A DNA stretch of 53,175 bases from a virus. Lineage: Duplodnaviria > Caudoviricetes. The DNA lies in IMG/VR virus record IMGVR_UViG_3300025652_000006, positions 1-53,175 of that record, one strand, 5' to 3'. The notes below the pieces were generated by a model. That model had not been told where the DNA came from and made no database searches. It was given only the letters and a program-made list of their open reading frames with translations. Positions 9,534 to 26,963 of this stretch are shown piece by piece. The translations under genes were made by a program, and so were the position numbers. Every line of letters starts with the position of its first letter. Positions within the stretch are counted from its first letter, which is position 1.

Positions 9534-9652
9534 GTGTTTAAAAACCACGTGATAAGGGCAAGCGTGCAGCCGAACGGCAACAGCACGATCAGCATCATGC
9601 CTAAGAAAAGTGCGGCAGGGTATGCCGTCGTGCGGATCCACTTGCTAATCAT
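9530..9652 (-). CDS. Small membrane protein
   Basis: MISKWIRTT... with one transmembrane segment and ATGA overlaps on both sides. Confidence 0.5.
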   Translation of the reverse strand: MISKWIRTTAYPAALFLGMMLIVLLPFGCTLALITWFLNT

Positions 9653-10286: not shown

Positions 10287-12374
10287 TCACACTCCTACAA
10301 TTTGGGCGAAAAGCCCCTTACCTTGCACCGTCAGTGCCCATCCACTGGCAACTTCGCCGATGAACTGTTTCTCAAGGTATCCCGCCTTCTCAGCATTTAC
10401 AACAGAATTCTTTGCCGCTGCGCTTGGGCCGCCGATCGCCTTGTGAATGTCCCGTGTCGTAACCGGTCCCTCTAGTCTTGCCTCGGCACTGCCAACGGCT
10501 TTAAGTACCTCGGTGACATTGTCATCCGTCCGGGTAGGTGCGCCGTATGATACCTCCCAGCATGCCGCGATCGCCGTGTCCGATACCTCATCGTCTGTGA
10601 TCTTGAGCAGTAGATTCATTGAGCCTACGCCTTTGGCGCCTTTTACCTCGACATCCACACGGTTAGAGATATGCCCCTCTTCCATGTCGGTACCGGTGTT
10701 GCTCATGTACATCCCGCAGTCAAGCGCACCGTGGATGGCACCTGACCCGCGCATGCGCTGCCCTGGCCTTCTCTGTGCGGTATCGGCGCTGCCCTTCGAT
10801 GCGTGGTGTACAAACATGACCGCACAGTTAAGGACCCTGCCAAGCGTGCGAAGCCTGCGCATCACTAGGGACATCTCATCAGAGCTATCCTCTGCGCTAC
10901 TATGTAAATCGCGCAACGGGTCGAGTACCAGGAGCTTTAGGGGTCCGAGTGCGCGGCATGAGGCGATAAGCATTGCCATGCTCAGATCTGAGCCGATGTC
11001 CAGATCGCGCCCACGTGGCTGCAGGTACAGATCGGCGGGGATCTTACCGTCACGAGTGGAGCAAAGGGATTTGATACGGTTTTGCACCGCTGCCCCTTGA
11101 TCCTCTGCATAAAAGTACGCGCACCTGCCTTGTTCTACCTCAAACTCGCCAAACGCCTTTGTGCCGCTCGCCACCGCTATGACCATCTCAGTAGCTGCCC
11201 AGGTCTTACCTGCCTTTGGGTCGGTTGCCAGGGCCGCTAGCGCGTCTTTGGTAAGCATGCCGGTGATAAGCCACGGAGTAGGATCGAAAGTGCTGTCTAT
11301 AAGGTCCTGCGCCGAGAGAAAGAAAGGCACCAGTTCTGTAGCCTCATCCTTGACGCCAAGCGCATCCATATAGTCTTTGGCAGCGTCTAGTACTTTCTCT
11401 TTGAATGATCCTGGTACGGCCACTTCTGAGAATGGGGCGGGGCCTTCCAGGCCTTCGAGAAACTCGTACGTGTCCCGCTTGTCGCCGTATTCGCCTGTAG
11501 CGTATCTGTCGGCATCATTCAGAAATTTACCTAGCTCGTTTGTTTCCCAAGGCGGCTGACATGAGGCGTTCCATTCGACCAGCAAATGGTATGCTTCCGT
11601 GCCGTCTAACGCGTAGTCATTTGTGACGATGGCAGCGGCAGCATACGTGTGAAGTGTGCCACCGCTATCCGAGATAGCCGGACCATGATCTTTCAGTGCG
11701 GCACGTGCGGCCGCTAAAAGACCCTTCGATGCTTCGGGGTAGGTGTGGTCTGCCTTATCCGTTACCGTGATTTCTTCAATCTCGATGCCTTCTAGCAGGC
11801 TATCGACATCTAACGGTGTTCCTGAGAACACCATTGATTGTGGCTTTGCGTCCTCAGGACAGCTCGGCAGGTGCCAAAAGCGGGCCGGGTTGTCTGTCTT
11901 GATGCCCGACGGTATGCCGAGGTACTTAAGCGCCTCGCGCCACAGGGGCTTGAATTCGGCAGCTGTGACAGGGCGGGACAGTGCTAACAAGAGGCGCCAG
12001 GTGCTTTTTTCTGGTGGGGCGTGGGAGTGTGTTGACGATATAATCGCCCTGATCCCCATGTCCTTCAGCCTCTTCATGTGCCGCAATGCTTCGGGCTGTG
12101 TGAGTTGCCCGCCGTCCTCTGATTTATCGAGATCAAAGCAAAGCGCGTGCACCTCTAAGACATTATCTGAGATTGCATGTCCAGCGATGCCAGGGCACTT
12201 GTCAGATCCGCAGTCGCACATGCCCTGCCTAAAAGAGGCAGGTGAGAATCCAGGGCCGGCCTTCTCTTCTCTCCGCTTATGGGTCGTCAGCGTGGTGACG
12301 GTCTGATCCCATGTCAGGATGCGTGTGTGCTCGGTGCCTTTATTAAAAAGGTCGGGGAAAAATGTAAAATGCAA
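10287..12374 (-). CDS. Primase-helicase (N-terminal AEP-type primase, PriCT-like linker, C-terminal RepA/AAA_25 helicase)
   Basis: CFDLD and STHSH primase motifs, WNASCQPPW linker, and helicase motifs PKAGKT, LLVLDPL, FVHHASK, RGSGA. Confidence 0.88.
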   Translation of the reverse strand: MHFTFFPDLFNKGTEHTRILTWDQTVTTLTTHKRREEKAGPGFSPASFRQGMCDCGSDKCPGIAGHAISDNVLEVHALCFDLDKSEDGGQLTQPEALRHMKRLKDMGIRAIISSTHSHAPPEKSTWRLLLALSRPVTAAEFKPLWREALKYLGIPSGIKTDNPARFWHLPSCPEDAKPQSMVFSGTPLDVDSLLEGIEIEEITVTDKADHTYPEASKGLLAAARAALKDHGPAISDSGGTLHTYAAAAIVTNDYALDGTEAYHLLVEWNASCQPPWETNELGKFLNDADRYATGEYGDKRDTYEFLEGLEGPAPFSEVAVPGSFKEKVLDAAKDYMDALGVKDEATELVPFFLSAQDLIDSTFDPTPWLITGMLTKDALAALATDPKAGKTWAATEMVIAVASGTKAFGEFEVEQGRCAYFYAEDQGAAVQNRIKSLCSTRDGKIPADLYLQPRGRDLDIGSDLSMAMLIASCRALGPLKLLVLDPLRDLHSSAEDSSDEMSLVMRRLRTLGRVLNCAVMFVHHASKGSADTAQRRPGQRMRGSGAIHGALDCGMYMSNTGTDMEEGHISNRVDVEVKGAKGVGSMNLLLKITDDEVSDTAIAACWEVSYGAPTRTDDNVTEVLKAVGSAEARLEGPVTTRDIHKAIGGPSAAAKNSVVNAEKAGYLEKQFIGEVASGWALTVQGKGLFAQIVGV

Positions 12375-12531
12375 AGTGTTCCAATCAATAAGTGATCATC
12401 CGGCCCACCCCGTTGGAACAAAGAAGGGGCAGGCCAGACGATCGGGCCATGGCAAGGGTATCACCGTGAGCGCTAAAAGGACAAGGCTAAACGGTCTGGA
12501 TTATCTTTGCCAAAAGGATGTTTTTTCTAAA

Positions 12532-12634
12532 ATAAAACTATAAGCTCAGTGGACCATGCGGTGCCTACCGACGGCAACCCCCAACGGGGGGAGGCCTAGA
12601 GGGGCAGAAAGCACAGTCCGAACTGTAGCTTACA
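12532..12634 (-). ncRNA. Structured small RNA, family copy 1
   Basis: Long irregular hairpin TGTAAGCT...AGCTTATA followed by GTTTTATT. Homologous to the copies at ~20.9 and ~28.9 kb with compensatory changes; G-U pairs work only on the minus strand. Confidence 0.7.
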
Positions 12635-12652
12635 TATTTGTGATATATGGTC

Positions 12653-12681
12653 TTGCGTAGGTGTTTTCTCTGTAGTAGCGT
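12653..12681 (+). promoter_or_regulatory. Sigma-70-type leaderless promoter
   Basis: TTGCGT-17 nt-TAGCGT-6 nt-ATG(12688). Confidence 0.55.
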
Positions 12682-12687: not shown

Positions 12688-13248
12688 ATGAAAATCACAC
12701 TGACGATAGATGACATGGTCTTTGAGTTAGACGCTGCCAGCGGTGCAGATGCTAAGGCACAGGTAGACGGTATCCGGCGCGCCTTTACATGCAAGGCCCC
12801 GAAGGATGACACCCGCCCTGACGCCACGCCGCTGGAGATGCTCGTATGGGTAGACGAGTTTCCGGGTAATCATTCGATCCGCTGGCTGGATCGCAATTGC
12901 CCCTTTGGCAATGCCAAGACCATGATCACCCGCCTGGAAAAAGAAGAGCGGCTTGTACTCGCTGAGACGCTGTACCAGGGTAAGAAGCACATGCAGACAA
13001 TGCAGGCCGTGTACCTGCCAGGCACTGAGCCGTCATCCCTACCAGAAGCGGGCAGTGGGGCGCTACGTGCAAGGTTGGGGGTATGGCTAAAAGACAATCC
13101 CGGCCACGCGGTTAAATTTGTGGAGGATCACTGTGGCATCATCCGTAGCCGGGCAAAAGCGACGTTGACAAAATTGATCACGGCTGACACTGTAGAGGTG
13201 CGCGAGGTCAAAGGTAAGCCGTGCGTGTTTTTGAAAGGAACAAAATGA
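12688..13248 (+). CDS. Hypothetical protein, possibly with tandem winged-helix domains
   Basis: 186 aa with two similar segments, WVDEFPGNHSIRWLDRNC and WLKDNPGHAVKFVEDHC. Confidence 0.65.
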   Translation: MKITLTIDDMVFELDAASGADAKAQVDGIRRAFTCKAPKDDTRPDATPLEMLVWVDEFPGNHSIRWLDRNCPFGNAKTMITRLEKEERLVLAETLYQGKKHMQTMQAVYLPGTEPSSLPEAGSGALRARLGVWLKDNPGHAVKFVEDHCGIIRSRAKATLTKLITADTVEVREVKGKPCVFLKGTK

Positions 13249-13511
13249 TCGTAGAATTAGAGGGAAAGACAACACTCACCTGCAGTACATACGGGTGCAA
13301 CGAGGCCATTCAGGTGCCTTGTGTGGTGTACTTTGACACAGAAACAGAGCTTGATGTAGACTCAGTGCCGTCCTGTGTGGGCGAGACCACCGAAGTAGAC
13401 TGGGAGTACCCGAAGGGGTGGGGTGCCGAGACACGTTACATCTATAGCAGCTATCACCCCACTGGGGGCCATGTATGCCCCGTACACCTAAAGGAGCGAA
13501 ATGCCAGTTAA
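13245..13511 (+). CDS. Hypothetical protein
   Basis: ATGA overlap; CxxxxC and CPVH motifs. Confidence 0.65.
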   Translation: MIVELEGKTTLTCSTYGCNEAIQVPCVVYFDTETELDVDSVPSCVGETTEVDWEYPKGWGAETRYIYSSYHPTGGHVCPVHLKERNAS

Positions 13512-13989
13512 AAAGACAGCAGAGAACCGGGCCGCAGCACGTGAAAGTCTCGCAAAGAAGAATTTCGACAAGCCACAGCGTACTAAGGCGGGACGATTCC
13601 CCAAAGGCGTAAGCGGCAATCCAGGCGGCACACGCGGAGGTGTAAAGGCCTTGGCCTATCGCATCCAAAAGGAAACGGCCGACGGTATGGAGATTGTGGA
13701 TCTCCTACTGCAGTGCATGCGCGGGCAGTTTGATGCCGAACACCTTAACGCCGGTATGCTTACGGATGCCGAGAAGTTCAAGGCCCGGCAATGGGCGATC
13801 GAGAAAGTCTTTGAACGTGGCTTTGGCAAACCTAAAGAAACGGTTGAGGTTATCTCAGGTTTCGAGGATGGCGGAGACGCTACCATGATTGATACCTCCA
13901 CCATGTCCGACGATGAGCTTGAAGCCCTCTCCAAGGCCGGTGATATCCTTGAGGCGCACGCCGCCAAGAAGGCCCCGATCGATGTCTAG
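13501..13989 (+). CDS. terS: Terminase small subunit (DUF5681-type motif)
   Basis: GRFPKGVSGNPGG motif and FERGFGKP; upstream of the large subunit. Confidence 0.7.
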   Translation: MPVKKTAENRAAARESLAKKNFDKPQRTKAGRFPKGVSGNPGGTRGGVKALAYRIQKETADGMEIVDLLLQCMRGQFDAEHLNAGMLTDAEKFKARQWAIEKVFERGFGKPKETVEVISGFEDGGDATMIDTSTMSDDELEALSKAGDILEAHAAKKAPIDV

Positions 13990-14227
13990 CGTCTACACCA
14001 TAGGCCTACCCTGTGATCAGACAATGCAGTATTGGGTAGGCCCTGTACTTAATCAGTGGACATTCTTAGGTAAAGAGGCGTGGCGCACTGAAGATAAGGC
14101 CGTTGCGGATCGCATGGTCGACATGATGTGCGAAGGACTTGAGGATCACGAGTTTCCGTCTCAGAGACCGTGGGTGTGTGAGCCGCAGGACGAGGACGAA
14201 CTCAATAGGGAGGATTGGACATGGTAA
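13982..14227 (+). CDS. Hypothetical protein
   Basis: Start MSSVYTIG overlaps the terS end. Confidence 0.6.
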   Translation: MSSVYTIGLPCDQTMQYWVGPVLNQWTFLGKEAWRTEDKAVADRMVDMMCEGLEDHEFPSQRPWVCEPQDEDELNREDWTW

Positions 14228-14394
14228 CCCTAGGTGCAATAGGCATATTTATAGCCCTTGCGGTGCTTTGCAGCAGGAAGCCTCCACCACCTAAGCCGCA
14301 GGTACTTCCAGCGTGTAAGTTAGGCAAGAGGGCACGCCAGAACAAGCGCAGCTTACGTAGCCGTAGAATTAGAAGGGCAGGTATGAAAAGATGA
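14221..14394 (+). CDS. Small membrane-anchored basic protein (57 aa)
   Basis: Manual translation MVTLGAIGIFIALAVLCSRKPPPPKP...; GGAGG ribosome-binding site. Confidence 0.5.
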   Translation: MVTLGAIGIFIALAVLCSRKPPPPKPQVLPACKLGKRARQNKRSLRSRRIRRAGMKR

Positions 14395-14705
14395 GCTTCT
14401 GTAAGCACTGTGACGAGCACACCGAAAGGCCGCTAGATGTGTACTATGACGATCACAATCCTGCATTCTGCTCCTCAAGCTGCGAGACAGATTACAGCTA
14501 TCTGGAGTGTAGGGTGTCCGGTAAGCCCGAGCTTATGGACCTACCCCTAGGTGCCGAGGTCTTAGACTTTACGGGCCGGGCGTGGACACGGGGCAGCGTC
14601 GACGGGTCATGTGTGAACCTCACCCGGCCGGGGAACATGCGCGCCATCCTCCGCTTCTATCAGCCGATTGTCTTTACGGATGGCCATTGGCGGCTTTGTA
14701 AATGA
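14391..14705 (+). CDS. Hypothetical Cys-motif protein
   Basis: CKHC...FCSSSC; coupled ORF. Confidence 0.6.
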   Translation: MSFCKHCDEHTERPLDVYYDDHNPAFCSSSCETDYSYLECRVSGKPELMDLPLGAEVLDFTGRAWTRGSVDGSCVNLTRPGNMRAILRFYQPIVFTDGHWRLCK

Positions 14706-14893
14706 TAGAGTCTATCCTAGAGATCACCTTATGTATGGGGCCAGAGGAGACCGTATGGCTAAACCCTACAGCGATAGCCACAGTGAGAGACGACGATCCT
14801 ACCTACTGTAGGGTCACGTTGATAGGTAGTCCCTACATGTACCGGATATACCTGCCTGGCAGCGAGGTACGTGCTATAATCGCCAAGAGGTGA
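14702..14893 (+). CDS. Small hypothetical protein
   Basis: 63 aa, overlapping both neighbours by 4 nt. Confidence 0.6.
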   Translation: MIESILEITLCMGPEETVWLNPTAIATVRDDDPTYCRVTLIGSPYMYRIYLPGSEVRAIIAKR

Positions 14894-16491
14894 GCTGCGA
14901 TCATGACTTTCTGAAGTCCCTGCACCCGCAGGGCAAGTGCCCGGTATGCCCAGACGTACCGGTGCATAAGCCCGTGGTGCAAGACATCAGGGCGCGTGCA
15001 CAGGCCGCTAAGATTGAGCTATCCAAGCGATCCCTTTACCACTTTCTGATAAACGGATGGCACGTTCTCGAACCGAACACCCCACTAGAGGGACACTGGC
15101 ACATCAAGACACTGTGCGATCATGTGCAATGGATGTTCGAGCAATGGGGGGGACGCGTACCTCAGGTGACGCAGAACCTTGATGTAAACGTCCCACCAGG
15201 TAGCCTTAAGTCCCGCATCGTGTCGGTGTACGGCCCAGCCTGGGCATGGCTGCCTAGTAACTGGCCTGGCATGTCTTTCCTGTGTCTGTCCTCCACACCG
15301 ACAGTTGCGATCCGTGATGCGGACTACAATAAAGAACTCATAGAGTCCGACTGGTACCGTCAGAGTTTCAATATCCCCTGGCACGTACGCTCTGATGCTG
15401 ACGCTAAGGGGCTGTTCAAAACCACCGCAGGTGGCCTTAGACAGTCGCAGGGGCTCAACGCTAAGATTGTCGGTGTACGTTGTGACTGTCTTCTGTTCGA
15501 CGATCCGAACGATGTTAAGGACATCTCAGACGTTAAACTGCAGCAGGTGGCCAACGGATACCTAGCTGCACGTAACCGCCTTAACGACCTGCGTAAGGGC
15601 TTCAGACTGGTAATCCAGCAGAGGACACACGAGAAGGACCTGTCCGGCAGGCTCCTGGCGTCTGGCGGGTGGGACCACCTGTGTATACCTATGGAGTACT
15701 CTCAGGCAAAGTGTGCGTGCGGTATGGATAAGTGCACCACAAAGCTAGGGACTGATGATCCTCGTACTGTGCCCGGTGAGGTCCTACACCCTGAGCGCAA
15801 CACCCCAGAGGTCCTAGCACAGGAGATGCTTGGCATGGGCAGTCTGGCGTACGCGGGGCAGATGAATCAAAGGCCGGCGCCTGAGGGTGGTGCGATGTTC
15901 AAGCTTGCCGACTGGCGCCACTACGATGAGCTGCCTCGTGACCGGCCCGGCAACCTGCAGACAGGGCAGGGCGTGCTTAGCATTGACTGCACCTTCGGCA
16001 AGGGCAAGCCAGGTGCGCCGCTGCGGGATAGGTGTGCAATGGTAGTTATCTTCCCCAAGGGCAAGGCCACACGCTTTGTAGACTACGCCTTTGCTGAGCG
16101 TATGGGCATCAAGGCGACCATCGCCAAGATCAAAGAGGTCTATGAGATGTACACCGACCCACGCACTGGCGGGCCGATGATCGGCAAGATCCTTATTGAG
16201 AAGGCCGCCAATGGCGAAGCCGTATGCGAGATGCTAGAGGATGAGCTACCGGGCATTAAGCTGATCATCGCCAACACTGACAAGATGTCACGCGCCAATG
16301 CCTGCTTGCCTACGGTCGAGGCGGGGAATATTCGCTTACGCAAGAATGCCCCGTGGGATGAGCAGTTCACTGCTGAACTGGCTGCATTCCCTACCGGGGC
16401 ACATGACGACTATGTCGACGCTTTCACCCAGGCGATCACCGAGATGGCGAGCGACATGGGCGGTAATTTGGCTAACGCTTGCGTGCTTTAG
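14890..16491 (+). CDS. terL: Terminase large subunit
   Basis: NVPPGSLKS (Walker A variant), LLFDDP, QQRTHEKDLSG, SIDCTF, IEKAANG and FPTGAHDDYVDA. Confidence 0.95.
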   Translation: MSCDHDFLKSLHPQGKCPVCPDVPVHKPVVQDIRARAQAAKIELSKRSLYHFLINGWHVLEPNTPLEGHWHIKTLCDHVQWMFEQWGGRVPQVTQNLDVNVPPGSLKSRIVSVYGPAWAWLPSNWPGMSFLCLSSTPTVAIRDADYNKELIESDWYRQSFNIPWHVRSDADAKGLFKTTAGGLRQSQGLNAKIVGVRCDCLLFDDPNDVKDISDVKLQQVANGYLAARNRLNDLRKGFRLVIQQRTHEKDLSGRLLASGGWDHLCIPMEYSQAKCACGMDKCTTKLGTDDPRTVPGEVLHPERNTPEVLAQEMLGMGSLAYAGQMNQRPAPEGGAMFKLADWRHYDELPRDRPGNLQTGQGVLSIDCTFGKGKPGAPLRDRCAMVVIFPKGKATRFVDYAFAERMGIKATIAKIKEVYEMYTDPRTGGPMIGKILIEKAANGEAVCEMLEDELPGIKLIIANTDKMSRANACLPTVEAGNIRLRKNAPWDEQFTAELAAFPTGAHDDYVDAFTQAITEMASDMGGNLANACVL

Positions 16492-16811
16492 AACGGAATC
16501 ATAGAGCAGCCGGGCCCGTGCTTCTGTAACCCTCCGATCTCCATCGGCATAGGAAGCCCGCAGTCACTACATGTGGAGGCAACAGGCACAGGGGCGAACT
16601 CCAAACTGTACGTATCCCCTAGCTTAGGGTGGGACAGAGACAGCATTGTGTCGTGCATAGGGATACCTCTTGGCCAGTCTGTAGCACCTACCTCCAGTTT
16701 TGCCTGAATCTGTACCCTAAATAAAGGCACCCGGCCGTCTCTGAGCCGAACGGACGTGCGATCCTCTCGCGTGGCCATTTGGATCCCAATCACTGTGTAT
16801 GTAATTTTCAT
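16488..16811 (-). CDS. Hypothetical protein
   Basis: Likely start MKITYTV overlapping the upstream stop. Confidence 0.55.
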   Translation of the reverse strand: MKITYTVIGIQMATREDRTSVRLRDGRVPLFRVQIQAKLEVGATDWPRGIPMHDTMLSLSHPKLGDTYSLEFAPVPVASTCSDCGLPMPMEIGGLQKHGPGCSMIPF

Positions 16812-17176
16812 ATCTGATTTACCCTTTCCAATGCCGCAGGTAACGTGCACGGGCGCGCGTACCACTGTGGCTCTTTTCTCTGTAGACACTGTCCTACCAC
16901 ACGATCGTGGTCGATGACAATGCGCATTTCAATCTCGTATCCTTGTGTGCGATAACGCTCCCACGTGGTTTCGATGTGGTGCGGTGTAACGCGGTCTACC
17001 GTCCACCCTAGCAGTGTGAGTCTTTCGACCATGTCGCCTTGCTTGCGCTCGGTGTACGTCTTTGTGACGTTGAAATGGGTGTACGTGCAGGATGCCCACA
17101 GCAGTAGACACGACAGTGCGGCCGCTGCTAGGTTTCTGGTCTCGGCGGTCGACTCGTACCATGTCTTCTTAAGCAT
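16808..17176 (-). CDS. Putative lipoprotein / exported protein
   Basis: Hydrophobic N-region ending LWASC. Confidence 0.55.
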   Translation of the reverse strand: MLKKTWYESTAETRNLAAAALSCLLLWASCTYTHFNVTKTYTERKQGDMVERLTLLGWTVDRVTPHHIETTWERYRTQGYEIEMRIVIDHDRVVGQCLQRKEPQWYARPCTLPAALERVNQI

Positions 17177-17646
17177 TACCAGCCCCTTTCACATGCTATA
17201 CGGTTTGGCTCTTTAAGCACGTCCCAAAATGCGTCATGGTCGTGTGATCCATTGTAGCTGCCGAACAGCTCAAAGTGTAGCGCGTGGCCGAACTCATGCA
17301 CAAGCGCACTGCCGCATGTCTTCTCGGGATCCTTATTGGAGACCGCCACGTAGACCTCCTCTAAAGACCACATACGCCCATAGTTACACTCGCCACGGTA
17401 GATTACCATGGACAGGCCGTTCTTAGGGCAGATCGTATCCGTCCAATAGACCACGGCATCCGTGTGCATGTCCCCTAGGTCGACACCGTAATGGTCTTCA
17501 ACCGCTAACTGAGTAGTAAAAAGTACCTTGCTTTGGTTAAAGACGCCGATGCGGTCTGAGACCACGATCCCCCGCTCCTCTGGTGTCATGACGCCGCCGC
17601 ATGCGGCTAAGAGTACGATAAACAACGCTAGCGTTTGTTTAATCAT
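17176..17646 (-). CDS. Zinc metalloprotease lipoprotein
   Basis: Lipobox LLAAC-GG; HEFGH motif plus downstream H (HDHDAFW), SprT/M48-like zincin. Confidence 0.75.
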   Translation of the reverse strand: MIKQTLALFIVLLAACGGVMTPEERGIVVSDRIGVFNQSKVLFTTQLAVEDHYGVDLGDMHTDAVVYWTDTICPKNGLSMVIYRGECNYGRMWSLEEVYVAVSNKDPEKTCGSALVHEFGHALHFELFGSYNGSHDHDAFWDVLKEPNRIACERGW

Positions 17647-18278
17647 AGAGGCACCTCACAGATTCCCCCTAGGAATTCAATGGCGTCTTCCGGTATCTCG
17701 TCAGGATGATCCCCGAAGGCACACCTAGACACGAAGTCAGTCAGTCGCTCAATCTCCGCATCCTTCTCGGCCAACTTGGCGTCCCGCTGCCTCTCCGTGT
17801 ACGTTAGTGCTGCCAATAATAGGGCTGCACCGTCGCCTGAAAGTTCCTCCTTCACGACTTGGACACCATCGCGTGCAACCATCGCGATTGCAGTGCTCAA
17901 TGCGGATCCACTGGCGTCAATGCCTACCATGACAGTCTGCGAGTCTTGTAGCCGTTCAATCTCCGCCGCCTGTTGGCGTATCGTCTCGTCCTGGCTCGCT
18001 GCCCATGCCTCTCGTGCGTCGACCTCTGATGCGAGTTGAGCAACCTCCTCCACCAGCGCAATCACTGTCTTCGGGTCGGCTGAGGCGATATGTGCGGCAT
18101 CGGCCATAGCGTTCTCATCCATATATGCGCCTGATAAATAGTGCTCTGCACCATCCTTCGTGCGCACCCACACAGATTCACCACCATCGTACGGAACGAA
18201 CCAGGTGCCCTGGGTAGCCGCCTTCGCCTTCGCGAGCACGTCTGCGCGTTTTTCCGGTGTTAGTTTCATCGTGTCCAT
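17643..18278 (-). CDS. Ead/Ea22-like protein
   Basis: AKAATQGTW...DAAHIASADPKTVIALVEEV motif followed by coiled coil. Confidence 0.7.
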   Translation of the reverse strand: MDTMKLTPEKRADVLAKAKAATQGTWFVPYDGGESVWVRTKDGAEHYLSGAYMDENAMADAAHIASADPKTVIALVEEVAQLASEVDAREAWAASQDETIRQQAAEIERLQDSQTVMVGIDASGSALSTAIAMVARDGVQVVKEELSGDGAALLLAALTYTERQRDAKLAEKDAEIERLTDFVSRCAFGDHPDEIPEDAIEFLGGICEVPL

Positions 18279-18835
18279 CCTCTCAAAAAGTGCTCAGGGT
18301 CGATGGCCTGGCGCGCTCGGTTCCATCGTCCACCTTTTAGGCGTTTATCGGTGTCCCATATTTCAAAATGCAAGTGATTAACACCCTGTCGACCGGCTTT
18401 AGGTGCGTGGGACACTAGCCCAAGGAAGTCCCCCTCTAAGAGCGTCTCACCGAGAGATACCTCTACGTCTTTAAGGTGCCTGTACACGCTCATGTAACGC
18501 CCGTGAGACAGGTAGACCGCTGTACCGTTGCCATCTGTCACAACACGTACCACGGTGCCTGCAGAGCACGCCACAGCCAGCACATTACTAGGGCAGTAAA
18601 AGTGCCGAGTGTAGACCGGCTTATCAAAAGCACCCGACTTAGGGCGGCGGTACATCAGATCAACACCATAGTGTCCTTTGCCGTTGCGCTTTGCCCTTGG
18701 CCCCTTGCGCTCAAAACCATCAGTCACCACAGGGTGGATACCCGGCAGGCAAAGTGGCATGGTGCCCTCTTTAAGGTAATTAGGCTCAGGGCAAGGCTTG
18801 ACGCCAAGCAATGCCTGTAGTAGTTGATTCCACAT
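18266..18835 (-). CDS. M23-family peptidase, probable endolysin
   Basis: HYGVD (HxxxD), SVYRHL and HLHFEI motifs. Confidence 0.88.
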   Translation of the reverse strand: MWNQLLQALLGVKPCPEPNYLKEGTMPLCLPGIHPVVTDGFERKGPRAKRNGKGHYGVDLMYRRPKSGAFDKPVYTRHFYCPSNVLAVACSAGTVVRVVTDGNGTAVYLSHGRYMSVYRHLKDVEVSLGETLLEGDFLGLVSHAPKAGRQGVNHLHFEIWDTDKRLKGGRWNRARQAIDPEHFLRGWTR

Positions 18836-18996
18836 TATGACTGCTCCGCATACACGAGTGCGATCACCAGTGCGACGATCTGCCGGCTTGGTATACCGTG
18901 CGAGTCCGCTAGTGCCTGCATGGCACTCTTGTCTCGATAGGCCTCGCCTACCTTGGTAAGTATGCAGTGCACCTTCTGCTGTTTCTGGTCTGTCAT
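18835..18996 (-). CDS. Small hypothetical protein (53 aa)
   Basis: Manual translation MTDQKQQKVHCILTKVGEAY...; GAGGAG ribosome-binding site and TAATG overlap. Confidence 0.55.
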   Translation of the reverse strand: MTDQKQQKVHCILTKVGEAYRDKSAMQALADSHGIPSRQIVALVIALVYAEQS

Positions 18997-19314
18997 AGTA
19001 TCTCCTCGATCATTTTTGCGATTTTCTCCCGTGCATTAAATACACGCACCTTGCGTATACCACGCTGCTCGGGGTTTAGGTTTTTAGGCGTGTACTTGTA
19101 CGCCTGATTTAGTGCCTCGTGGATTGTCATCAGATCTTTGATATCTAAAGACACGTGATCACCTTCTGCCCCAGGTACCTGTCAAAGAACATCCCGAGGA
19201 TCTCTGTACGTACCTTATCGCGGTACCGTCGTGATGTCCACCAGGACCAAGCTACACGTACGTTTACGGTGCCGTCTGTCTCGGTCAGGTTCAGTGATCG
19301 TATCCCGATTCGAT

Positions 19315-19641
19315 TCATAGGTTCTCCTCAATGTAGTCGGCGATTTCTGAGAATGAGGTGCCTAGGTCATTCATACGCATTAGGTCAGATGCGTATCCAC
19401 TGCCGACGCCCGTCTTTGCAAGGTACCCACCGGCCAGCACTGCACTATTTTCTTGAAAGGTGCACCGCTGTGACGTTGCCCTAAAATCCCATGCGTCTTC
19501 CCCTTCGACCTCCTCAACAAGTACACCCAGACAGCAGTACTTGGCCCCGTCAGGTGTCAATCGACACAATGCCCCATCGCCTTGTGTGTAGTCTCCACTA
19601 CGTAGTGCAGCGACCCATTTCTTTTTGATTTCTTGATTCAT
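19315..19641 (-). CDS. Conserved phage hypothetical protein
   Basis: KWVAALRSGDYTQG...YCCLGV...MNDLGTSFSEIADYIE, a pattern common in phages. Confidence 0.8.
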   Translation of the reverse strand: MNQEIKKKWVAALRSGDYTQGDGALCRLTPDGAKYCCLGVLVEEVEGEDAWDFRATSQRCTFQENSAVLAGGYLAKTGVGSGYASDLMRMNDLGTSFSEIADYIEENL

Positions 19642-19796
19642 AGTAATCTCTCCTTTGTTTCTGCGATGTAGTCCACCGCTTGCTCATGTGTTGGGAATGT
19701 ACACTCAATGTACCCCTGATAGTCAAGCTCTATTCGTGCTTTGTACCCGTACGCGGTGCGGGTGATGGTGCTATCTCCTGGCTCTTCCTGGTTCAT
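19638..19796 (-). CDS. Small hypothetical protein (52 aa)
   Basis: Manual translation MNQEEPGDSTITRTAYGYKARIE...; AAGGAG ribosome-binding site and ATGA overlap. Confidence 0.6.
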   Translation of the reverse strand: MNQEEPGDSTITRTAYGYKARIELDYQGYIECTFPTHEQAVDYIAETKERLL

Positions 19797-19808
19797 ATTC
19801 TCTCCTTT

Positions 19809-19824
19809 TGCACGGTGTGTGCCA
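19809..19824 (-). promoter_or_regulatory. Sigma-54-type -24/-12 promoter
   Basis: TGGCAC-ACACC-GTGCA (GG-N10-GC), 12 nt before ATG 19796, the same spacing as the two other copies. Confidence 0.55.
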
Positions 19825-19897
19825 GCGTATGAGGTAAAGTAAAACTTTAGGTGTGGCGTATAAGTGCCTGTATTTGTTTCTCAGTACAGGACCTGCA

Positions 19898-20374
19898 CTA
19901 TAGTGCATGAGACAAGATGGCGCACCTGTCGTTTATTTGGTCGATCGTAGGCAGGTGCCCACAGTAAGAGTCACCAGGGCGTACCTGACTGTATCTGAAG
20001 TCCTTAGGCCAGGTAAACAGCACACGCTCTTCTGAGTCGACGAGAACCACAGTGGCTACGTTCCACACAGAAGCACCGGTATTCTCGAATGTGACCGACT
20101 CTGTACTGGGAGTGACTTTTTTTACAGCATAGAGCGCCCCATCCGCATCACGTAATTCTACGTAGTACGGACCTTGATCTAGGTAGGAGGTACGCTCTCC
20201 AGGATAGAGGATGCCTTCCTGTATGCCTGTGCCCTTGCACGTCGGACAAGGTGCAGCCGCTGCCTTGTCGATAAGCGCCCGCACAGCCTCTGCCATGGTG
20301 CCACCTTGCTTCTGCAGGTAGCGCCGCTGGGCATCGGTGAAACGTACCTGCTGCACGTGCACTAGTTTACTCAT
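19898..20374 (-). CDS. Putative ribbon-helix-helix DNA-binding protein with a CxxCxGxG motif
   Basis: QVRFTDAQRRYL...TMAEAVRALID followed by CPTCKGTG. Confidence 0.6.
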   Translation of the reverse strand: MSKLVHVQQVRFTDAQRRYLQKQGGTMAEAVRALIDKAAAAPCPTCKGTGIQEGILYPGERTSYLDQGPYYVELRDADGALYAVKKVTPSTESVTFENTGASVWNVATVVLVDSEERVLFTWPKDFRYSQVRPGDSYCGHLPTIDQINDRCAILSHAL

Positions 20375-20624
20375 GATTAAGATCCTCAAGTTCGATCCTG
20401 TAGACAGGCTCTGGGGATTCGAAAAGTTCATCCATACGATCTGTCCAGCTACGATGACAGACCACGACTGCCTGATCACATTCTAGGTATGTCGACCAAA
20501 GTACAGGCGCATGGCCACCGGCCCACGCCGCATGCGCTGCCACAAACTCGTCCGCTGCTGCCTTGAGAGAGGACGACGCGTCATTGAGCCTATGTCTGGC
20601 TGTTTCGGACTTATCACTACGCAT
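20367..20624 (-). CDS. Hypothetical protein
   Basis: 85-aa coupled ORF. Confidence 0.55.
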   Translation of the reverse strand: MRSDKSETARHRLNDASSSLKAAADEFVAAHAAWAGGHAPVLWSTYLECDQAVVVCHRSWTDRMDELFESPEPVYRIELEDLNHE

Positions 20625-20802
20625 GATCGTACCCGGCTAGCAAGGCTGCCTCGGCATGCTCAAAGGATCGGGCAAATTGGCGTTTTGCGCCTGTGGCTTT
20701 TGACCACCAGGACCGATCGGCCAGATTGATAGCGCCCACCTTGTCACCGTCTAGAAAGTACTCGATGACACCAGGGTTTTGCGCGTGTTGTTTTTTCTCC
20801 AT
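20617..20802 (-). CDS. Hypothetical protein
   Basis: First gene of the leftward island, starting MEKKQH. Confidence 0.55.
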   Translation of the reverse strand: MEKKQHAQNPGVIEYFLDGDKVGAINLADRSWWSKATGAKRQFARSFEHAEAALLAGYDHA

Positions 20803-20878
20803 ACCCTTTTGTAGCCTACACAATCTGTGGTGTCTATAGGTTTCTTATTTTATTTTGATAGAAGGATGTTTTTCCCAA

Positions 20879-20978
20879 AATAAAACTATAAGCTCAGAGG
20901 ACCTTGTCGGCCTACCCGCCGGGTTCCCCCTTGGGGGGCCACCCTAGGAGGGGCCTAGACCGATCCGAAGTGAGCTTA
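20879..20978 (-). ncRNA. Structured small RNA, family copy 2
   Basis: TATAAT (20988-20993, minus strand), then the TAAGCTCA...TGAGCTTA hairpin, then TAGTTTTATTTT. Confidence 0.7.
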
Positions 20979-21006
20979 ACCATTTGTATTATAGGTCTTT
21001 TCGTCC

Positions 21007-21041: not shown

Positions 21042-21413
21042 GTGACCGATGAGAAAAAGAAGGAAAGAGCGCGCAAGAGTCGGATCTGGCATCACCAAAA
21101 TAGGGACAGGGCGCTAGCCAGACAGAAAAAGTACAGGGATGAGAACCCTGACAAGGTCAGAGCGACTCAGCGCAAATCTCGATATGGCGTCACCCAGGAG
21201 CAGTATGACAACCTCTTGATTGAGCAAGCGTACTGCTGTGCCATATGTGTCCTGCCACCTAGAAAAGGCAGGCCACTATCGGTAGATCATTGCCACACAA
21301 CGGGCAAGATTCGAGGGCTCCTATGTAACAAGTGCAACCTTACGCTAGGAAGGTTCGGGGACGACTTAGCAGGAATTATGAGGGTCGCAGCCTATCTTAA
21401 AGGCGAACTCTGA
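21042..21413 (+). CDS. Endonuclease VII-family HNH nuclease
   Basis: CAIC...LSVDHCHTTGKIRGLLCNKCN with a basic N-terminal helix. Confidence 0.9.
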   Translation: MTDEKKKERARKSRIWHHQNRDRALARQKKYRDENPDKVRATQRKSRYGVTQEQYDNLLIEQAYCCAICVLPPRKGRPLSVDHCHTTGKIRGLLCNKCNLTLGRFGDDLAGIMRVAAYLKGEL

Positions 21414-21476
21414 TAGCCTCTACAGTATAGGTTCACTTTTCCGCGATTAGCTTATTTCCCGTGCTATATTAGGTTA

Positions 21477-23018
21477 ATGGCAAAACCTAAAGGGAATCCG
21501 AACATGGTAAAGGGGCGACCATCGATTAACCCTAAAGGCAGAGGCGGCCTCAAGGCACGCATCGATAGCGGTGCATTAGTACATGCTGACGGATGGCGCA
21601 ACCTGATCTCTGGCGTCAATGTGGCCGCCTATGATAAGCGCATGGCCTCGCACCCTGTCTGTGCTGACGTATCCTATGAAGACGCACAGGCGATCTGGCG
21701 TGGCGATGATGTAGGCGGGCGGGCAGTAGAAATCCCAGCTGAGGACATGATCCGCCAGGGGTTCGATTTCATCGCCGATGCCAAAGACGATGAGAGTCTA
21801 GATACCTCAGAGATCCAAGAGCAAGTCGAGAAGGCTTGGAAGGACCTGGGCGTGTTCCCGATCTTCAAAGAGGCTCTCATGAAGCGGGATGCATACGGCG
21901 GGTGTGCGGTGCTAGTCGGCGCCAAGGATAGCCAGGCAGATCTGACAATCCCCCTCAAGATAAAGAACGTGCGAGAGATCTCCTTTATGAACGTCTTTGA
22001 CAAGACGGAAATCATGCCAGAGTATTATTACGGCAATCCTAGAGAGGCCAATTACGGCAAGCCTGCAGTCTTTCAGATCGTGCCACGGGGCACCGGCCAG
22101 ACAGAGGACGGCGTGGTACACCATGAGATCATCCTGATCCACGAGTCCCGCCTTCTCGTTTTCAATGGCCGCCAGGTAGCAAGCCAGATCTCAGGTGACG
22201 GGTGGGGCGATAGCATCTTTGTACAGATGCACGATGTACTAAGGGATTTCAATGCGTCATGGGACGGCACAGGTAGTCTTGTTCAGGAGTTTGGCCAAGC
22301 GACGATTAAGCTCAAGGGCCTAAATGCCCTGCTGTGCACTGCCGATGGTGAGACACAACTAGCCTCACGCCTGCAGGCCATGCAGCTAGCCAAGAGCACA
22401 CTCAAAGCGACGGTACTAGACTCAGAGGATGAGTGGCTAAGACAGTCAGATAGCCTCTCAGGTCTGTCTGAGATCCTCCGGCAATACATGGGACGCATGT
22501 CAAGCGCATGTCGTGGCATCCCGATCACAAAACTTTTTGGCGTCGCACCCTCAGGGTTGAACGCATCGGGGGATAGTGATATCGCTCAATGGGATGATCG
22601 TGTCAAGTCAATGCAGGTGGACGGGGTTCTGCCGAACCTAGAGAAGCTCACACGCATTATTCTCTCAGCGAATAGCATCAAGTGTAAAGAGTGGTCGATT
22701 GTACCACGTCCGCTTAGGCAGCAGACCGACAAGGAGAAGGCCGAGACGCGCAAGATCGTAGCTGAGACGGATGCTATCTATGCGGGTATCGGGGCACTTT
22801 CAGCCGATGAGATCGCCGAGTCAAGATTTTCAGGTGATGTCTATTCTATGGAGACTGTGGTAGACTTTGAAGACAGGTCAGCACTAGAGGCAGAAATGCA
22901 GGCAGAGCAGGACCTCCTAATGAAGCAAGCCGAAACCCCTAACCCAAACCAGGCGCCGGCACCTGCCGAGGGCGAGAGTGCCGAACCTGGGGCCGAAAAG
23001 GCCAAGGAGCAGAAATAG
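21477..23018 (+). CDS. Portal protein (DUF1073 type)
   Basis: DGWRNL, IHESRLL, GWGDS and IPITKLFGVAPSGLNASGDSD; precedes the gpF-like gene. Confidence 0.92.
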   Translation: MAKPKGNPNMVKGRPSINPKGRGGLKARIDSGALVHADGWRNLISGVNVAAYDKRMASHPVCADVSYEDAQAIWRGDDVGGRAVEIPAEDMIRQGFDFIADAKDDESLDTSEIQEQVEKAWKDLGVFPIFKEALMKRDAYGGCAVLVGAKDSQADLTIPLKIKNVREISFMNVFDKTEIMPEYYYGNPREANYGKPAVFQIVPRGTGQTEDGVVHHEIILIHESRLLVFNGRQVASQISGDGWGDSIFVQMHDVLRDFNASWDGTGSLVQEFGQATIKLKGLNALLCTADGETQLASRLQAMQLAKSTLKATVLDSEDEWLRQSDSLSGLSEILRQYMGRMSSACRGIPITKLFGVAPSGLNASGDSDIAQWDDRVKSMQVDGVLPNLEKLTRIILSANSIKCKEWSIVPRPLRQQTDKEKAETRKIVAETDAIYAGIGALSADEIAESRFSGDVYSMETVVDFEDRSALEAEMQAEQDLLMKQAETPNPNQAPAPAEGESAEPGAEKAKEQK

Positions 23019-23019
23019 T

Positions 23020-23202
23020 ATGAGCCACCCTGTAAAACCATCAGCGGCAGAGGCAGAGTGCCTGGCTGATTTTCTTAGCGGCCCACAAAGACGTACGGTA
23101 CAGCGCAGGGAGCCTGGCCCGTACGACCCATGCCGGTGCGGCAAACTCATATGGTACTGTGATGAAACGGGCTGCGATCTCGCCACCAAGGAGCAGAAAT
23201 AG
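23020..23202 (+). CDS. Small Cys-containing hypothetical protein flanked by a 17-bp direct repeat
   Basis: 60 aa; ends in the same CCAAGGAGCAGAAATAG as the portal gene. Confidence 0.5.
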   Translation: MSHPVKPSAAEAECLADFLSGPQRRTVQRREPGPYDPCRCGKLIWYCDETGCDLATKEQK

Positions 23203-23270
23203 ACATATGACATGCACACACACGATCCAAGGCGTATGCGAGAAATGTATTATTTTTGTCACAAGGGCAT

Positions 23271-24056
23271 ATGCCAAGAAAACTACCTAAGCAGCACAGG
23301 CCAGCCGGGATCGAGCGTGACTATGCCAGAGAGTTGCGCAAGATCGCCAAGCGTGTCGACAAAGAGCTTGCGCCTTTAAAGCGTGAGCTGCCTGCCCTTA
23401 TCGAGCAAGCCAATACTGAGCGCAAGCGTGAGAGCGGTAATGTCTTCGACGCTGGCGAGTCTAGGCGTGTGCGTATTCTGCTAGAGCAGGCTGGCGAGCG
23501 CATACAGATCAAGACAGCTGCCCTAGAGGCACTCGCTCGTAAGTTTGCCGTACGCATACAGACGCACCAGCGTATTCAAATGAGCCGGCAAGTTAAAGCG
23601 GTGCTTGGGGTCGATCTGTCCTCTAACATCCCGCTACGGGCCTCTATGGAAGCCTTCGTAGCTGAAAACGTATCCTTGATCAAGGATGTACCGGCTAAGG
23701 TGCTAAGGGATATCCAGGGTATCGTCGATCGTGGCATCTCAGCAGGCGCACTACACAAAGATATCGCCAAAGAGATCCAGTCCGCTACTAGGCTAGGCGT
23801 ACAACGCTCTGCGGGTATCGCACGGGATCAGGTCGGTAAGTACTACGGCCAGGTACAGGCAACTCGACACAAGGCGATCGGCGTTAAGCGCTTTACCTGG
23901 AATTCTGTAGAGGATGAGCGCGTACGAAGTGAACACCAGAGCCTTAACGGTGAGACGTTTAGCTATGACAAGCTCCCTTCTGAGGGCCTGCCCGGTGAGC
24001 CGATCATGTGCCGCTGCTACGCAGATCCTGTGCTAGAGGACCTGCTAGACGGCTAG
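23271..24056 (+). CDS. Head morphogenesis protein (Mu gpF / SPP1 gp7 family)
   Basis: IARDQVGK, W...DERVRSEH and PGEPIMCRC. Confidence 0.92.
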   Translation: MPRKLPKQHRPAGIERDYARELRKIAKRVDKELAPLKRELPALIEQANTERKRESGNVFDAGESRRVRILLEQAGERIQIKTAALEALARKFAVRIQTHQRIQMSRQVKAVLGVDLSSNIPLRASMEAFVAENVSLIKDVPAKVLRDIQGIVDRGISAGALHKDIAKEIQSATRLGVQRSAGIARDQVGKYYGQVQATRHKAIGVKRFTWNSVEDERVRSEHQSLNGETFSYDKLPSEGLPGEPIMCRCYADPVLEDLLDG

Positions 24057-24059: not shown

Positions 24060-24293
24060 TTAAAGAGCATGCCTGGGCGTCTTGTCTCCATCTCCCTCGT
24101 CGCGAAGGAGTCTGGCATCTTCTAGCAGTTCATCGCTGATGCTGGCGCCTTGCTCGCGCAGGACACTTACGCCCTCCTCTAGGTCTTCGCCGATTTCTAT
24201 CTCGCTGACAATCATCCCTGCACCTATGACCCAGAGCAGGTAGTAGGTGCCGTATTCCAGTACGATTTGCTGTGATTGGGTGTTGTTGGTCAT
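24060..24293 (-). CDS. Hypothetical protein
   Basis: ATG lies directly after copy 1 of the repeated promoter module. Confidence 0.6.
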   Translation of the reverse strand: MTNNTQSQQIVLEYGTYYLLWVIGAGMIVSEIEIGEDLEEGVSVLREQGASISDELLEDARLLRDEGDGDKTPRHAL

Positions 24294-24409
24294 GTTCTTA
24301 GGTAATGCACGCAGTGTGCCATACTTTCAGGCATGTCCTTTCAGGCACTTTGGCCAAAGTGTCGCTTTTCAGATCGTAGTCAAAGACGACACTGACTGAA
24401 AAAGCGACA
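24291..24409 (-). promoter_or_regulatory. ~120-bp repeated regulatory module, copy 1: inverted repeat plus sigma-54 promoter (24306-24321)
   Basis: TGTCGCTTTT...AAAAGCGACA inverted repeat, then TGGCAC-ACTGC-GTGCA and ATG; close copy at 25097-25215. Confidence 0.75.
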
Positions 24410-24607
24410 GTTACACGCACTGCGAGCAGTAGTAGAAAGTGGACACACAGGCAACTATGGATACACCTTGTACCTTAGTCCAGCCTGCCCGATCTTTGAC
24501 AGTGGTGTTCTCTGCGCAGGATGAACACTCCAGTAGCGACAGTCTGCAGGTCCTGCACACCTTGAGTACCTTACCTTGGACATACACAGGCACATGTACT
24601 AGGCATG

Positions 24608-24895
24608 TCATCCGAACAAGATCCGATCCTTTGCGGGGCCGTCAGCGTACGCTATGAGGGTCGCCCACTCAGATAGCTCATGCTGCTCTATACACTGCTC
24701 CGTGTACCCTTCAATCTGGTTGGGCATCTGGTCAGAGTAGTAGCTGTAGCCCTCCTCGTAGGAGATTACGTCTGTGGATGCGAAGGCCTCAGCCCAGTCG
24801 CACTGGCGGAAGTCTAGCCCGGTGAACTGATTCAATAGGTAGTCCAGTGCTGCTGATATGCGTGTTTCGATTTGTGCTTTGTTCATGATATCCAC
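24608..24895 (-). CDS. Hypothetical acidic protein
   Basis: 95 aa with a GGGAGG ribosome-binding site. Confidence 0.6.
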   Translation of the reverse strand: MDIMNKAQIETRISAALDYLLNQFTGLDFRQCDWAEAFASTDVISYEEGYSYYSDQMPNQIEGYTEQCIEQHELSEWATLIAYADGPAKDRILFG

Positions 24896-24901
24896 CTCCC
24901 C

Positions 24902-25099
24902 CTAGCGGTGGCTAGCCACTAGTTTGTTTACGATTCCGTTTGCTGCGCTGCGGTTCCAATGGTTGCTAACCATCTCATCAACGATTAGGTCAAGCTCGAC
25001 CTGCAGATCGTACCCGTTAATCTCTGCGACAAGTGCTCGGCTGATTGCGCAAGGGATTGAAGTTTTCTCGGAAGATGAAAGGTAGTCAAGTACGTTCAT
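24902..25099 (-). CDS. Hypothetical protein
   Basis: ATG lies directly after copy 2 of the repeated promoter module. Confidence 0.6.
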   Translation of the reverse strand: MNVLDYLSSSEKTSIPCAISRALVAEINGYDLQVELDLIVDEMVSNHWNRSAANGIVNKLVASHR

Positions 25100-25217: not shown

Positions 25218-25218
25218 T

Positions 25219-25527: not shown

Positions 25528-25635
25528 GTCGGTATCCTAGTCTTTGCGCGTTACACTCAAAGTAGTATTTAAAGAAACTGCGGACGCTCTCTACATGGTG
25601 AGGCCCCCAGTGTATTCTGTTTCCTAGATATATTT

Positions 25636-26294: not shown

Positions 26295-26296
26295 GT

Positions 26297-26961: not shown

Positions 26962-26963
26962 TG

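Follow-up and report, generated by a model that had tools for sequence, protein, structure and literature searches.

A structured intergenic module in three copies at divergent junctions of an uncultivated freshwater phage, with a possible role as promoter-proximal leader

The metagenome-derived genome of an uncultivated freshwater phage, represented by the IMG/VR record IMGVR_UViG_3300025652_000006 (53,175 nucleotides (nt); ‘the window’ denotes this whole 53-kb stretch), raises a question about its organization: what is the element of ~165 base pairs (bp) which occurs there three times, in one and the same orientation, between genes that are transcribed away from each other? We find that the module is genuine, does not code for protein, has been under selection for its structure and belongs to no established class, and we suggest, with a probability of roughly 40%, that each copy is a cis-regulatory, promoter-proximal leader or attenuator cassette located at the hub of two diverging operons. 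A first-pass annotation of the window had proposed a small RNA (sRNA) or, alternatively, an attenuator. A structured, unclassified element is indeed present between a −10 box and a U-rich tail, and its context favours the cis alternative, that is, an attenuator or leader. Nothing was found in favour of the more specific roles considered at that stage, namely a decoy for a defence protein, a mimic engaging RNA polymerase, or a packaging RNA.

The module and its three copies

The presence of three elements of common orientation in divergent intergenic regions was confirmed by (i) a BLAST search of the record against itself, which returns the copies with identities of 100, 82 and 74%, (ii) a covariance model, R1, which was built from the three copies and run with filters off, and (iii) a map of the open reading frames (ORFs). 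R1 scores 168–180 bits on the copies, and the next best score is 12.5 bits, obtained on the opposite strand of the same sites. The three copies are the only ones in the window. In a greedy ORF map the intergenic gaps holding them (313, 312 and 253 bp) are the three largest of the genome; by ORF orientation the genome has four divergent junctions, three of which are occupied, and the motifs flanking the copies are absent elsewhere in the genome.

Read along the minus strand, the module comprises ACG-AAAAGACC, a −10-like box, ~9 nt, an unbranched hairpin of 90–95 nt, TAG-TTTTATTT(T), and a conserved A/T-rich flank of ~45 nt which ends near GAAACC. The anatomy described in the first-pass annotation was found in place, with AAGACC, TATAAT (ATATAT/TATATC in copy 1), ~9 nt, the hairpin and TAGTTTTATTT. 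The constituent features are as follows, where energies are minimum free energies (MFEs) of the minus-strand hairpin and z is the deviation of the fold from dinucleotide shuffles.

12488–12660, minus strand: copy 1, whole module; R1 score 168.4 bits; between the primase-helicase operon and the terminase unit (hub 1)
12541–12632, minus strand: copy 1 hairpin, ~92 nt, unbranched; −46.8 kcal/mol, z −5.1; stem ends TAAGCT/AGCTTA
12642–12654, minus strand: copy 1 AAGACC and degenerate −10-like box, ATATAT/TATATC, with no hexamer having both A2 and T6; unreported by the promoter/terminator scanner
12491–12540, minus strand: copy 1 TAG-TTTTATTTT tail and conserved A/T-rich 3′ flank; tail score −3.39
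20836–21006, minus strand: copy 2, whole module; R1 score 180.1 bits; between the small-ORF/peptidase unit and endonuclease VII plus portal (hub 2)
20889–20978, minus strand: copy 2 hairpin, ~90 nt; −45.6 kcal/mol, z −1.9
20988–20999, minus strand: copy 2 AAGACC-TATAAT, with TATAAT at 20988–20993; plus strand TATTATA
20839–20888, minus strand: copy 2 TAG-TTTTATTTT tail and conserved 3′ flank; tail score −3.39
28831–29003, minus strand: copy 3, whole module; R1 score 173.6 bits; between the C39-like peptidase gene and the head/tail operon (hub 3)
28884–28974, minus strand: copy 3 hairpin, ~91 nt; −47.5 kcal/mol, z −5.9
28984–28995, minus strand: copy 3 AAGACC-TATAAT; plus strand TATTATA
28834–28883, minus strand: copy 3 TAG-TTTTATTT tail and conserved 3′ flank; tail score −3.33

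In the right flank, 18 nt of copy 3 are identical to copy 2, and contigs from three DNA runs of one sample contain no DNA variants inside the elements. Several readings of the module were rejected at this stage. A coding function was dismissed since no ORF is common to the copies and their insertions and deletions do not come in threes, and a tRNA-like element since ARAGORN gives no hit at the elements. A mobile repeat akin to miniature inverted-repeat transposable elements (MITEs) or repetitive extragenic palindromes (REPs) was set aside because there are just three copies, with hairpins that are 59–67% identical, and none in the other loci, records and collections searched.

That the family was not recognised in the first-pass annotation agrees with Rfam, which has no match at the elements: in Rfam 15, the whole window yields three transfer RNA (tRNA) hits and nothing else at the gathering threshold, and at E ≤ 10 the three 3-kb loci around the copies yield two unrelated weak hits, none of them at the elements. 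Two known RNAs deserve separate mention. 6S RNA is a rod of ~180 nt with a large central bubble resembling an open promoter; it was rejected because no 6S model hit was obtained and the rod found here has ~92 nt and small internal loops only. A packaging RNA of the phi29 type was likewise rejected, considering that the fold is unbranched, that the phage has a terminase large subunit, and that there is no Rfam hit.

Searches for homologues gave a consistent picture. Among IMG/VR viral contigs, a scan for the exact pattern CTGAGNNTATAGTTTTATTT found eight stretches, the hairpin being present in none of the eight, an apical pattern and a gapped pattern found none each, and a scan for AAGACCTATAATACAA found 52 stretches, which is about the chance estimate, with no true R1 hit. 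Pattern scans of GTDB genome contigs and of JGI metagenome contigs gave one stretch (from Kitasatospora, with no R1 hit) and none, respectively, and BLASTN against phages gave no match to the element. R1 had no true hit on 303 loci selected as portal relatives or pattern matches, among the matches listed, where its best scores were 16–17 bits (E 0.7–2.7) in A/T-rich DNA, and no hit on six whole IMG/VR records. Locus searches of the IMG/VR viral contigs with single proteins retrieved nothing with the primase-helicase or the portal, and one distant locus with the protease. The best relatives compared as DNA have portals which are 40–45% identical, among the matches listed; closer relatives, with portals 76, 68 and 58% identical on 3–4-kb ENA/Logan contigs, were compared as proteins only. 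The sequence family is new to Rfam and to the collections searched, and is so far confined to one metagenomic phage.

Fold, strand and transcription signals

Among the 12 most stable 100-nt segments of the genome, the three hairpins are the only unbranched folds; the z-score of copy 2, which is G+C-rich, is just marginal. In a MAFFT alignment of the three copies (A4), 88% of the 92 pair cells hold standard pairs, as opposed to 32–50% when the partners are slid by 1–3 columns. Of the 31 pairs, five differ at both partners, and two of these five belong to the outer helix (UAAGCU/AGCUUA versus UAGACU/AGUCUA); the observed pairing values are reached in only 2–7 of 500 column shuffles. Invariant are 36 of 62 paired and 9 of 33 unpaired columns, among them CTAGG, the C-run/G-run tip and CCGNCGG, with a spacing fixed at 20 nt in all copies. 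The covariation invoked in the first-pass annotation is therefore seen inasmuch as pairing is kept while sequence drifts, but three sequences do not amount to statistical proof. The conservation attributed to the internal loop was confirmed: CTAGG ... CCGNCGG and the tip consist of invariant columns. Taken together, the alignment is suggestive of selection acting on pairing. The copies have also kept their bulges and internal loops, as would be expected of a fold formed by a single strand rather than of a site recognised in duplex DNA.

Which strand would be transcribed is indicated by several features of different weight. It had been claimed that G-U pairs fix the strand; in the consensus structure, seven cells hold G-U pairs that exist on the minus strand only, versus three A-C cells corresponding to G-U on the plus strand, which is a lean and not a proof. 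The MFE folds of the individual copies contain seven G-U pairs on the minus versus four on the plus strand, and the minus-strand fold is better by 3.5, 3.9 and 0.8 kcal/mol for copies 1–3. An RNA on the minus strand is favoured by the TATAAT box in two of the three copies, by a strand-specific U-tail, and by similar layouts in two related phages (see below).

Exact TATAAT is scarce, with five sites in the genome versus 12.4 ± 3.5 in shuffles, and two of these five are those of copies 2 and 3, located on the minus strand 9 nt before the hairpin. The proposal that the element has its own promoter was not confirmed: the copies offer a −10 box alone, which is consensus in two of three, and no −35, and the box is unreported by the scanner for promoters and terminators. 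Upstream of the box, conservation does not extend past ACG-AAAAGACC, and the two promoter-like hits of the scanner lie elsewhere in the modules; in copy 1, its sole such site is TAGAAA-18-GATAAT (12529→12500), located in the 3′ flank. Seen from the plus strand, the −10 region of copies 2 and 3 is TATTATA, a symmetric TAnnnTA −10 which copy 1 does not have; GGTCTTTT sits directly after TATTAT on the rightward strand.

The U-tail was scored with a TransTermHP-type formula. The minus-strand scores listed above are within the top 3% of genome positions, whereas the plus strand gives −2.25, −1.85 and −2.39, and the tail UUUUAUUU(U) is invariant among the copies. The 3′ flank of 45 nt that follows exhibits an identity of 75–84%, versus 59–67% for the hairpin, and forms a second hairpin by pairing of the U-tract with an A-tract further downstream; in copy 2, this is UUUUAUUUUG/CAAAAUAAAA with CAUCCUU in the loop. 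No double changes in support of covariation of this second hairpin were found among the three copies. Since the flank is better conserved than the hairpin and folds back on the U-tract, we argue that transcripts would continue past the U-tract. The second hairpin would then be present in the read-through transcript only, so that the context favours a role in cis.

Possible roles of the module

Several features, considered jointly, fit a leader or attenuator best: the copies stand where operons begin, a −10 box precedes the hairpin such that the foot of the latter falls on the expected +1 position, the U-tail is strand-specific, and the conserved flank folds back on this tail. The mode of action might be as follows. 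RNA polymerase would open AAGACC-TATAAT and start on the minus strand ~7 nt downstream, at the foot of the hairpin, where a phage factor would probably assist as there is no −35. The first 90–95 nt of the predicted RNA would fold immediately into the unbranched rod. At UAG-UUUUAUUU(U) some polymerases may stop and free an RNA of ~105 nt, while the remaining complexes would read through the A/U-rich segment of 45 nt, the A-tract of which pairs back on the U-tract with CAUCCUU in the loop, and would enter the leftward operon, that is, the replication genes (copy 1), the small-ORF/peptidase block (copy 2) or the C39-like peptidase gene (copy 3). A factor that might set the ratio of stop to read-through, or the stability of the message, would probably dock at the sequence-conserved internal loop, where CCUCUAGG faces CCGNCGG, and at the C-run/G-run tip. 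Finally, TATTATA on the other strand may also start the rightward packaging, head and tail operons, which would couple both directions. A phage-encoded RNA polymerase, sigma factor or antiterminator was dropped as partner of the element, none being recognised among the ORFs scanned with Pfam or PHROGs.

If the leader reading is correct, a single RNA module in three copies heads most non-early genes of the phage, which would add an unclassified structured RNA family and provide a testable case of RNA-based control of a phage expression programme in a lineage known from metagenomes only.

The layouts of related phages bear on this reading. G003, an IMG/VR record of 49 kb with a portal 41% identical, is syntenic with the window over most genes. 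Two of its junctions match hubs 2 and 1, and these carry large hairpins of unrelated sequence, with perfect 16-bp stems, which point away from the morphogenesis genes. The hairpin at 27304–27376 has 73 nt; downstream of it come ATTTTT and a small hairpin between the U-tract and an A-tract, the loop of which contains CATCCTT, matching the 3′ flank of the window copies. At 31587–31695, TATAAT (31587) is followed after 4 nt by a 99-nt rod toward the primase-helicase gene. A composite signature (rod, TTTT within 8 nt, CA(T/G)CCTT within 35 nt), which was devised as a filter after the G003 site was known, is clean only in the window copies and at the G003 site when 3.08 Mb of loci are considered; three weaker hits are without a clean T-run. 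In MW202816.1 (portal 34% identical), the sole divergent gap holds TTGACT-17-TATAAT, a 131-nt rod and a strong terminator, oriented toward a helicase gene. That relatives seem to have unrelated hairpins at the same junctions hints that structure, and not sequence, is needed there.

The locus of MW202816.1 is also of interest in its own right. At 48100–48336, the consensus promoter leads directly into the 131-nt rod, after which come a small hairpin and a strong terminator of the intrinsic type (MFE −102.5, z −6.6), all of it pointing to the replicative helicase gene. The rod belongs to no Rfam family at gathering score (four weak hits, best E 0.25), no other phage record has it, and we consider it a candidate unannotated phage sRNA.

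Several observations weigh against the leader reading. As regards relatives, G004 (portal 40% identical, syntenic) is without a rod at the positions of hubs 1 and 2, and at the position of hub 3 both G003 and G004 have only 23–25 bp between the same two genes, so that the element is dispensable there. A generic scan for a −10 plus rod gave 7 hits versus 6 in shuffled sequence for the window and 8 versus 14 for G003, and it failed to pick the rod of MW202816.1; being no better than shuffles, it renders the resemblance among relatives anecdotal. As regards transcription, no copy has a TTGACA-like −35 at 16–18 nt upstream, and no site of the scanner uses the TATAAT box. Copy 1, which precedes the largest operon, has no acceptable minus-strand −10 (ATATAT/TATATC), and its best sigma-70-like site is located after the hairpin. 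The A/U-rich base of the hairpin (UAAGCU/AGCUUA) and the 3-nt spacer to the U-run make a poor textbook terminator, and a simple scanner (stems up to 20 pairs, loops of 3–8) reported no terminator in any copy. The excess of G-U over A-C cells (7 versus 3) is not significant, and the well-conserved 3′ flank could instead be where transcription of the leftward genes is initiated, in which case the hairpin would belong to a free-standing RNA.

In other relatives, no such layout was found upstream of the portal gene in G002/L015, none was found in L019, and a gap scan of G006 (62% G+C) found nothing alike. The junction of G004 which matches hub 1 (9549–9644) contains AATTGTAA three times, with two of the copies forming an inverted repeat, an array that looks like an operator rather than a rod hairpin.

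The last of the objections leads to a reading in trans, which we regard as rather unlikely: the copies would be three paralogous genes for a free-standing RNA of ~105 nt, which extends from TATAAT to the U-tract and is bound at its loop and tip by a protein of the phage or of the host; the leftward genes would then have a promoter of their own in the 3′ flank. In favour of this, a −10 box, a hairpin whose foot coincides with the predicted +1, and a U-tail make up a compact unit, the loop sequence is kept while the stems drift, the comparable rod of MW202816.1 has its own consensus promoter and strong terminator, and the scanner places TAGAAA-18-GATAAT of copy 1 after the hairpin. However, the terminator tail is weak, given the stem base, the short spacer and the silent scanner, and the 3′ flanks of copies 2 and 3 have no consistent −35/−10. 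Moreover, the second hairpin employs the U-tract itself, and three diverged copies located solely at operon starts are more economically explained as a cis element.

Comparably doubtful is a role at the level of DNA, where the hairpin would be an imperfect palindrome between outward promoters (TATTAT rightward; TATAGT or TAAAAT/GATAAT leftward) and might act as a cruciform or supercoil sensor, as a set of palindromic protein sites (CCTnnAGG, C5-N3-G5, CCGNCGG), or as a single-strand hairpin for priming or replication. Consistent with such a role, conservation ends on both sides near the putative outward transcript starts, the conserved motifs are DNA palindromes exactly 20 bp apart in all copies, and the plus strand folds nearly as well, the G-U excess not being significant. 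In the right flank, the −10 has the symmetric form TAnnnTA, as in the bidirectional type described in PMC12825309, the matching junctions of G003 carry perfect 16-bp inverted repeats, and copy 1 is next to the primase-helicase gene. On the other hand, the retained bulges and loops, the identity of 59–67% and the compensated stems are unlike a duplex site or an easily extruded cruciform, and the fold computed with DNA parameters amounts to only about −20 kcal/mol. It is likewise difficult to reconcile with this role that the phage has double-stranded DNA and a terminase, with no obvious obligatory single-stranded stage, and that the asymmetry of the U-tail would have no function. Should the element nonetheless be a DNA palindrome, it would be an instance in which paired substitutions arose outside transcribed sequence, and would call for caution in RNA-discovery screens.

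Quite improbable, in our view, is a face-to-face promoter switch, in which the leftward TATAAT would be opposed, across the hairpin, by a promoter of the left flank that fires rightward (TTGCCA/TTGATA/TTGCTA, 15 nt, TAAAAT/CAAAAT/TTAAAT), so that the two sets of operons have complementary 5′ leaders and interfere with each other, or a plus-strand RNA is functional. TTGnnA and an A/T-rich upstream stretch are conserved, in copy 1 the plus-strand hit of the generic scan consists of TAAAAT and a hairpin of 92 nt, and the plus-strand box is best in the very copy whose minus-strand box is worst; in addition, the plus-strand internal loop of copies 1 and 3 would give tandem G-A/A-G. Yet a spacer of 15 nt is shorter than sigma-70 permits, conservation within the left flank is lowest at the putative −10, whereas the 13 nt that follow do not vary, the tail on the plus strand is poor in U, and the plus-strand fold is weaker in all three copies. 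Least probable of all is that the hub works as a two-way switch based on the symmetric −10 or on facing promoters, which would send polymerase either leftward into the replication and lysis-like genes or rightward into packaging, head and tail genes; a phage-encoded factor bound to the invariant CUAGG/CCGNCGG loop of the rod would set direction or read-through, and the ~105-nt RNA, released from three loci, would titrate the factor in trans, although this would, if true, be a phage-wide timing device of undescribed kind.

Genome context and known systems

Gene blocks were called with Pfam and PHROG scans and are arranged around the three hubs as follows.

12374 down across the window ends to 51015, leftward: replication block (DNA polymerase, helicases, exonuclease, primase-helicase)
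10287–12374, minus strand: primase-helicase, first gene left of copy 1 (PF13481 8.5e-30, DnaB_C, primase/helicase PHROGs)
12688–16491, rightward: terminase unit
16488–20823, leftward: block with a peptidase/endolysin-like gene
21042–24056, rightward: endonuclease VII, portal and Mu-F unit
21042–23018, plus strand: endonuclease VII and portal, right of copy 2 (PF02945 1.5e-22; PF06381 2.4e-68)
24060–28341, both directions: small unknown ORFs
28325–28801, minus strand: C39-like peptidase gene, the sole gene left of copy 3 (PF03412 2.6e-08)
Right of copy 3, rightward: long head/tail operon
29570–30676, plus strand: head maturation protease, first in the structural operon right of copy 3 (PF09979 3.9e-45; phrog_530 8.4e-90)

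The terminase large subunit is identified by phrog_38 (3.1e-66). The terminal 127 bases of the window are identical (1–127 = 53049–53175), and the own-record search classes the entry as an IMG/VR virus that is 100% complete and carries direct terminal repeats. Contigs of the source sample yield a closed circle of 53,048 bp, linking 30000 to 12000 via 35,047 further bases; since they bridge the ends, the record is a circularly closed or permuted genome of 53,048 bp without physical terminal repeats there. The exact 127-bp repeat lies inside the DNA polymerase gene, which spans the window ends.

Some further features of the window were noted. The fourth divergent junction (26663–26757), between two small-ORF blocks, is without the element; weak −35/−10-like boxes are discernible by eye (TTTACT-17-TAGTGT, leftward) and fall under the threshold of the scanner. 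The replication block contains minus-strand tRNA genes at 2220–2295, 2406–2479 and 6494–6580; two are called by ARAGORN as Val(AAC) and Arg(CCG), and the third is weak and found by Rfam only (30 bits). A listed ORF of 705 residues (4476–6593) overlaps the Arg tRNA, so that its true start is probably further in. GATC occurs at 406 sites in the whole window, versus 205 expected from base composition.

How does the module compare with regulatory systems that are already known? In lambdoid phages, antitermination RNAs and leader terminators are represented by put of HK022, by nut/N of lambda, and by PR′-6S RNA-tR′ with Q. There, an RNA structure right after the promoter decides on read-through into long operons, and several copies may be present per genome (putL/putR, nutL/nutR). 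The module shares with them the promoter-proximal position of the putative RNA structure and the occurrence in several copies per genome. However, put consists of two short stem-loops, and boxB is a 15-nt hairpin apart from the terminator, whereas the module is itself a single 92-nt rod followed by a U-tract, and no N- or Q-like protein was found among the ORFs scanned.

Bidirectional bacterial promoters share a symmetric −10 and fire both ways, as outlined by Warman et al. (PMC12825309). The right flank of copies 2 and 3, with TATAAT/TATTAT (TATTATA) in a divergent gap, is similar to such promoters. In contrast, the hairpin is not required in that class as there outlined, and copy 1 does not have the symmetric box.

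Closer in arrangement are short RNAs derived from 5′ untranslated regions (5′UTRs) in virulent Pseudomonas phages, which, according to Putzeys et al. 2024 (PMC10914365), arise through premature termination just after promoters. For 34 of 42 5′UTR terminators, either a short structured RNA or a long mRNA is made from one start, and the genes that such RNAs precede include a primase/helicase gene in one case and a head gene in another (PMC10914365). The ends of those RNAs were mapped, whereas the module is known from its sequence alone and is likened to them by description; furthermore, a multi-copy paralogous family with covariation is not described for them in the available parts of PMC10914365.

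Finally, promoter-early stem-loop (PeSL) cassettes of T4-type phages, as portrayed by Arbiol et al. 2010 (PMC2839356), are intergenic repeats of ~100 bp with promoter boxes, A/T-rich flanks and a stem-loop, which often has G-run/C-run arms and can terminate transcription. The module resembles them in being a repeated intergenic cassette of one phage genome with promoter box, A/T-rich flank and stem-loop. PeSLs have, however, a full sigma-70 −35/−10 and short stem-loops, and occur in ~50 copies per genome between co-directional ORFan genes of hyperplastic regions (PMC2839356), whereas the module is present in three copies at divergent core junctions and has a covarying rod of 90–95 nt, no −35 and a conserved 45-nt flank. 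PeSL membership was rejected on account of the incomplete promoter, the long rod, the three copies and their location at divergent junctions of core modules.

A second repeated cassette of the window is a separate matter. It occurs at 24290–24412 and 25096–25218 (89% identical over 123 nt, 806 bp apart), in each case upstream of a small minus-strand ORF within the block of small unknown ORFs, and consists of a hairpin (GTCGCTTTTTCAG...CTGAAAAGCGAC) and a conserved stretch reaching the start codon; this cassette resembles a promoter/stem-loop cassette of the PeSL type.

We therefore file the three-copy module as a variant of the repeated regulatory cassettes and promoter-proximal structured leaders of phages, and do not assign it to either the PeSL or the 5′UTR-RNA family.

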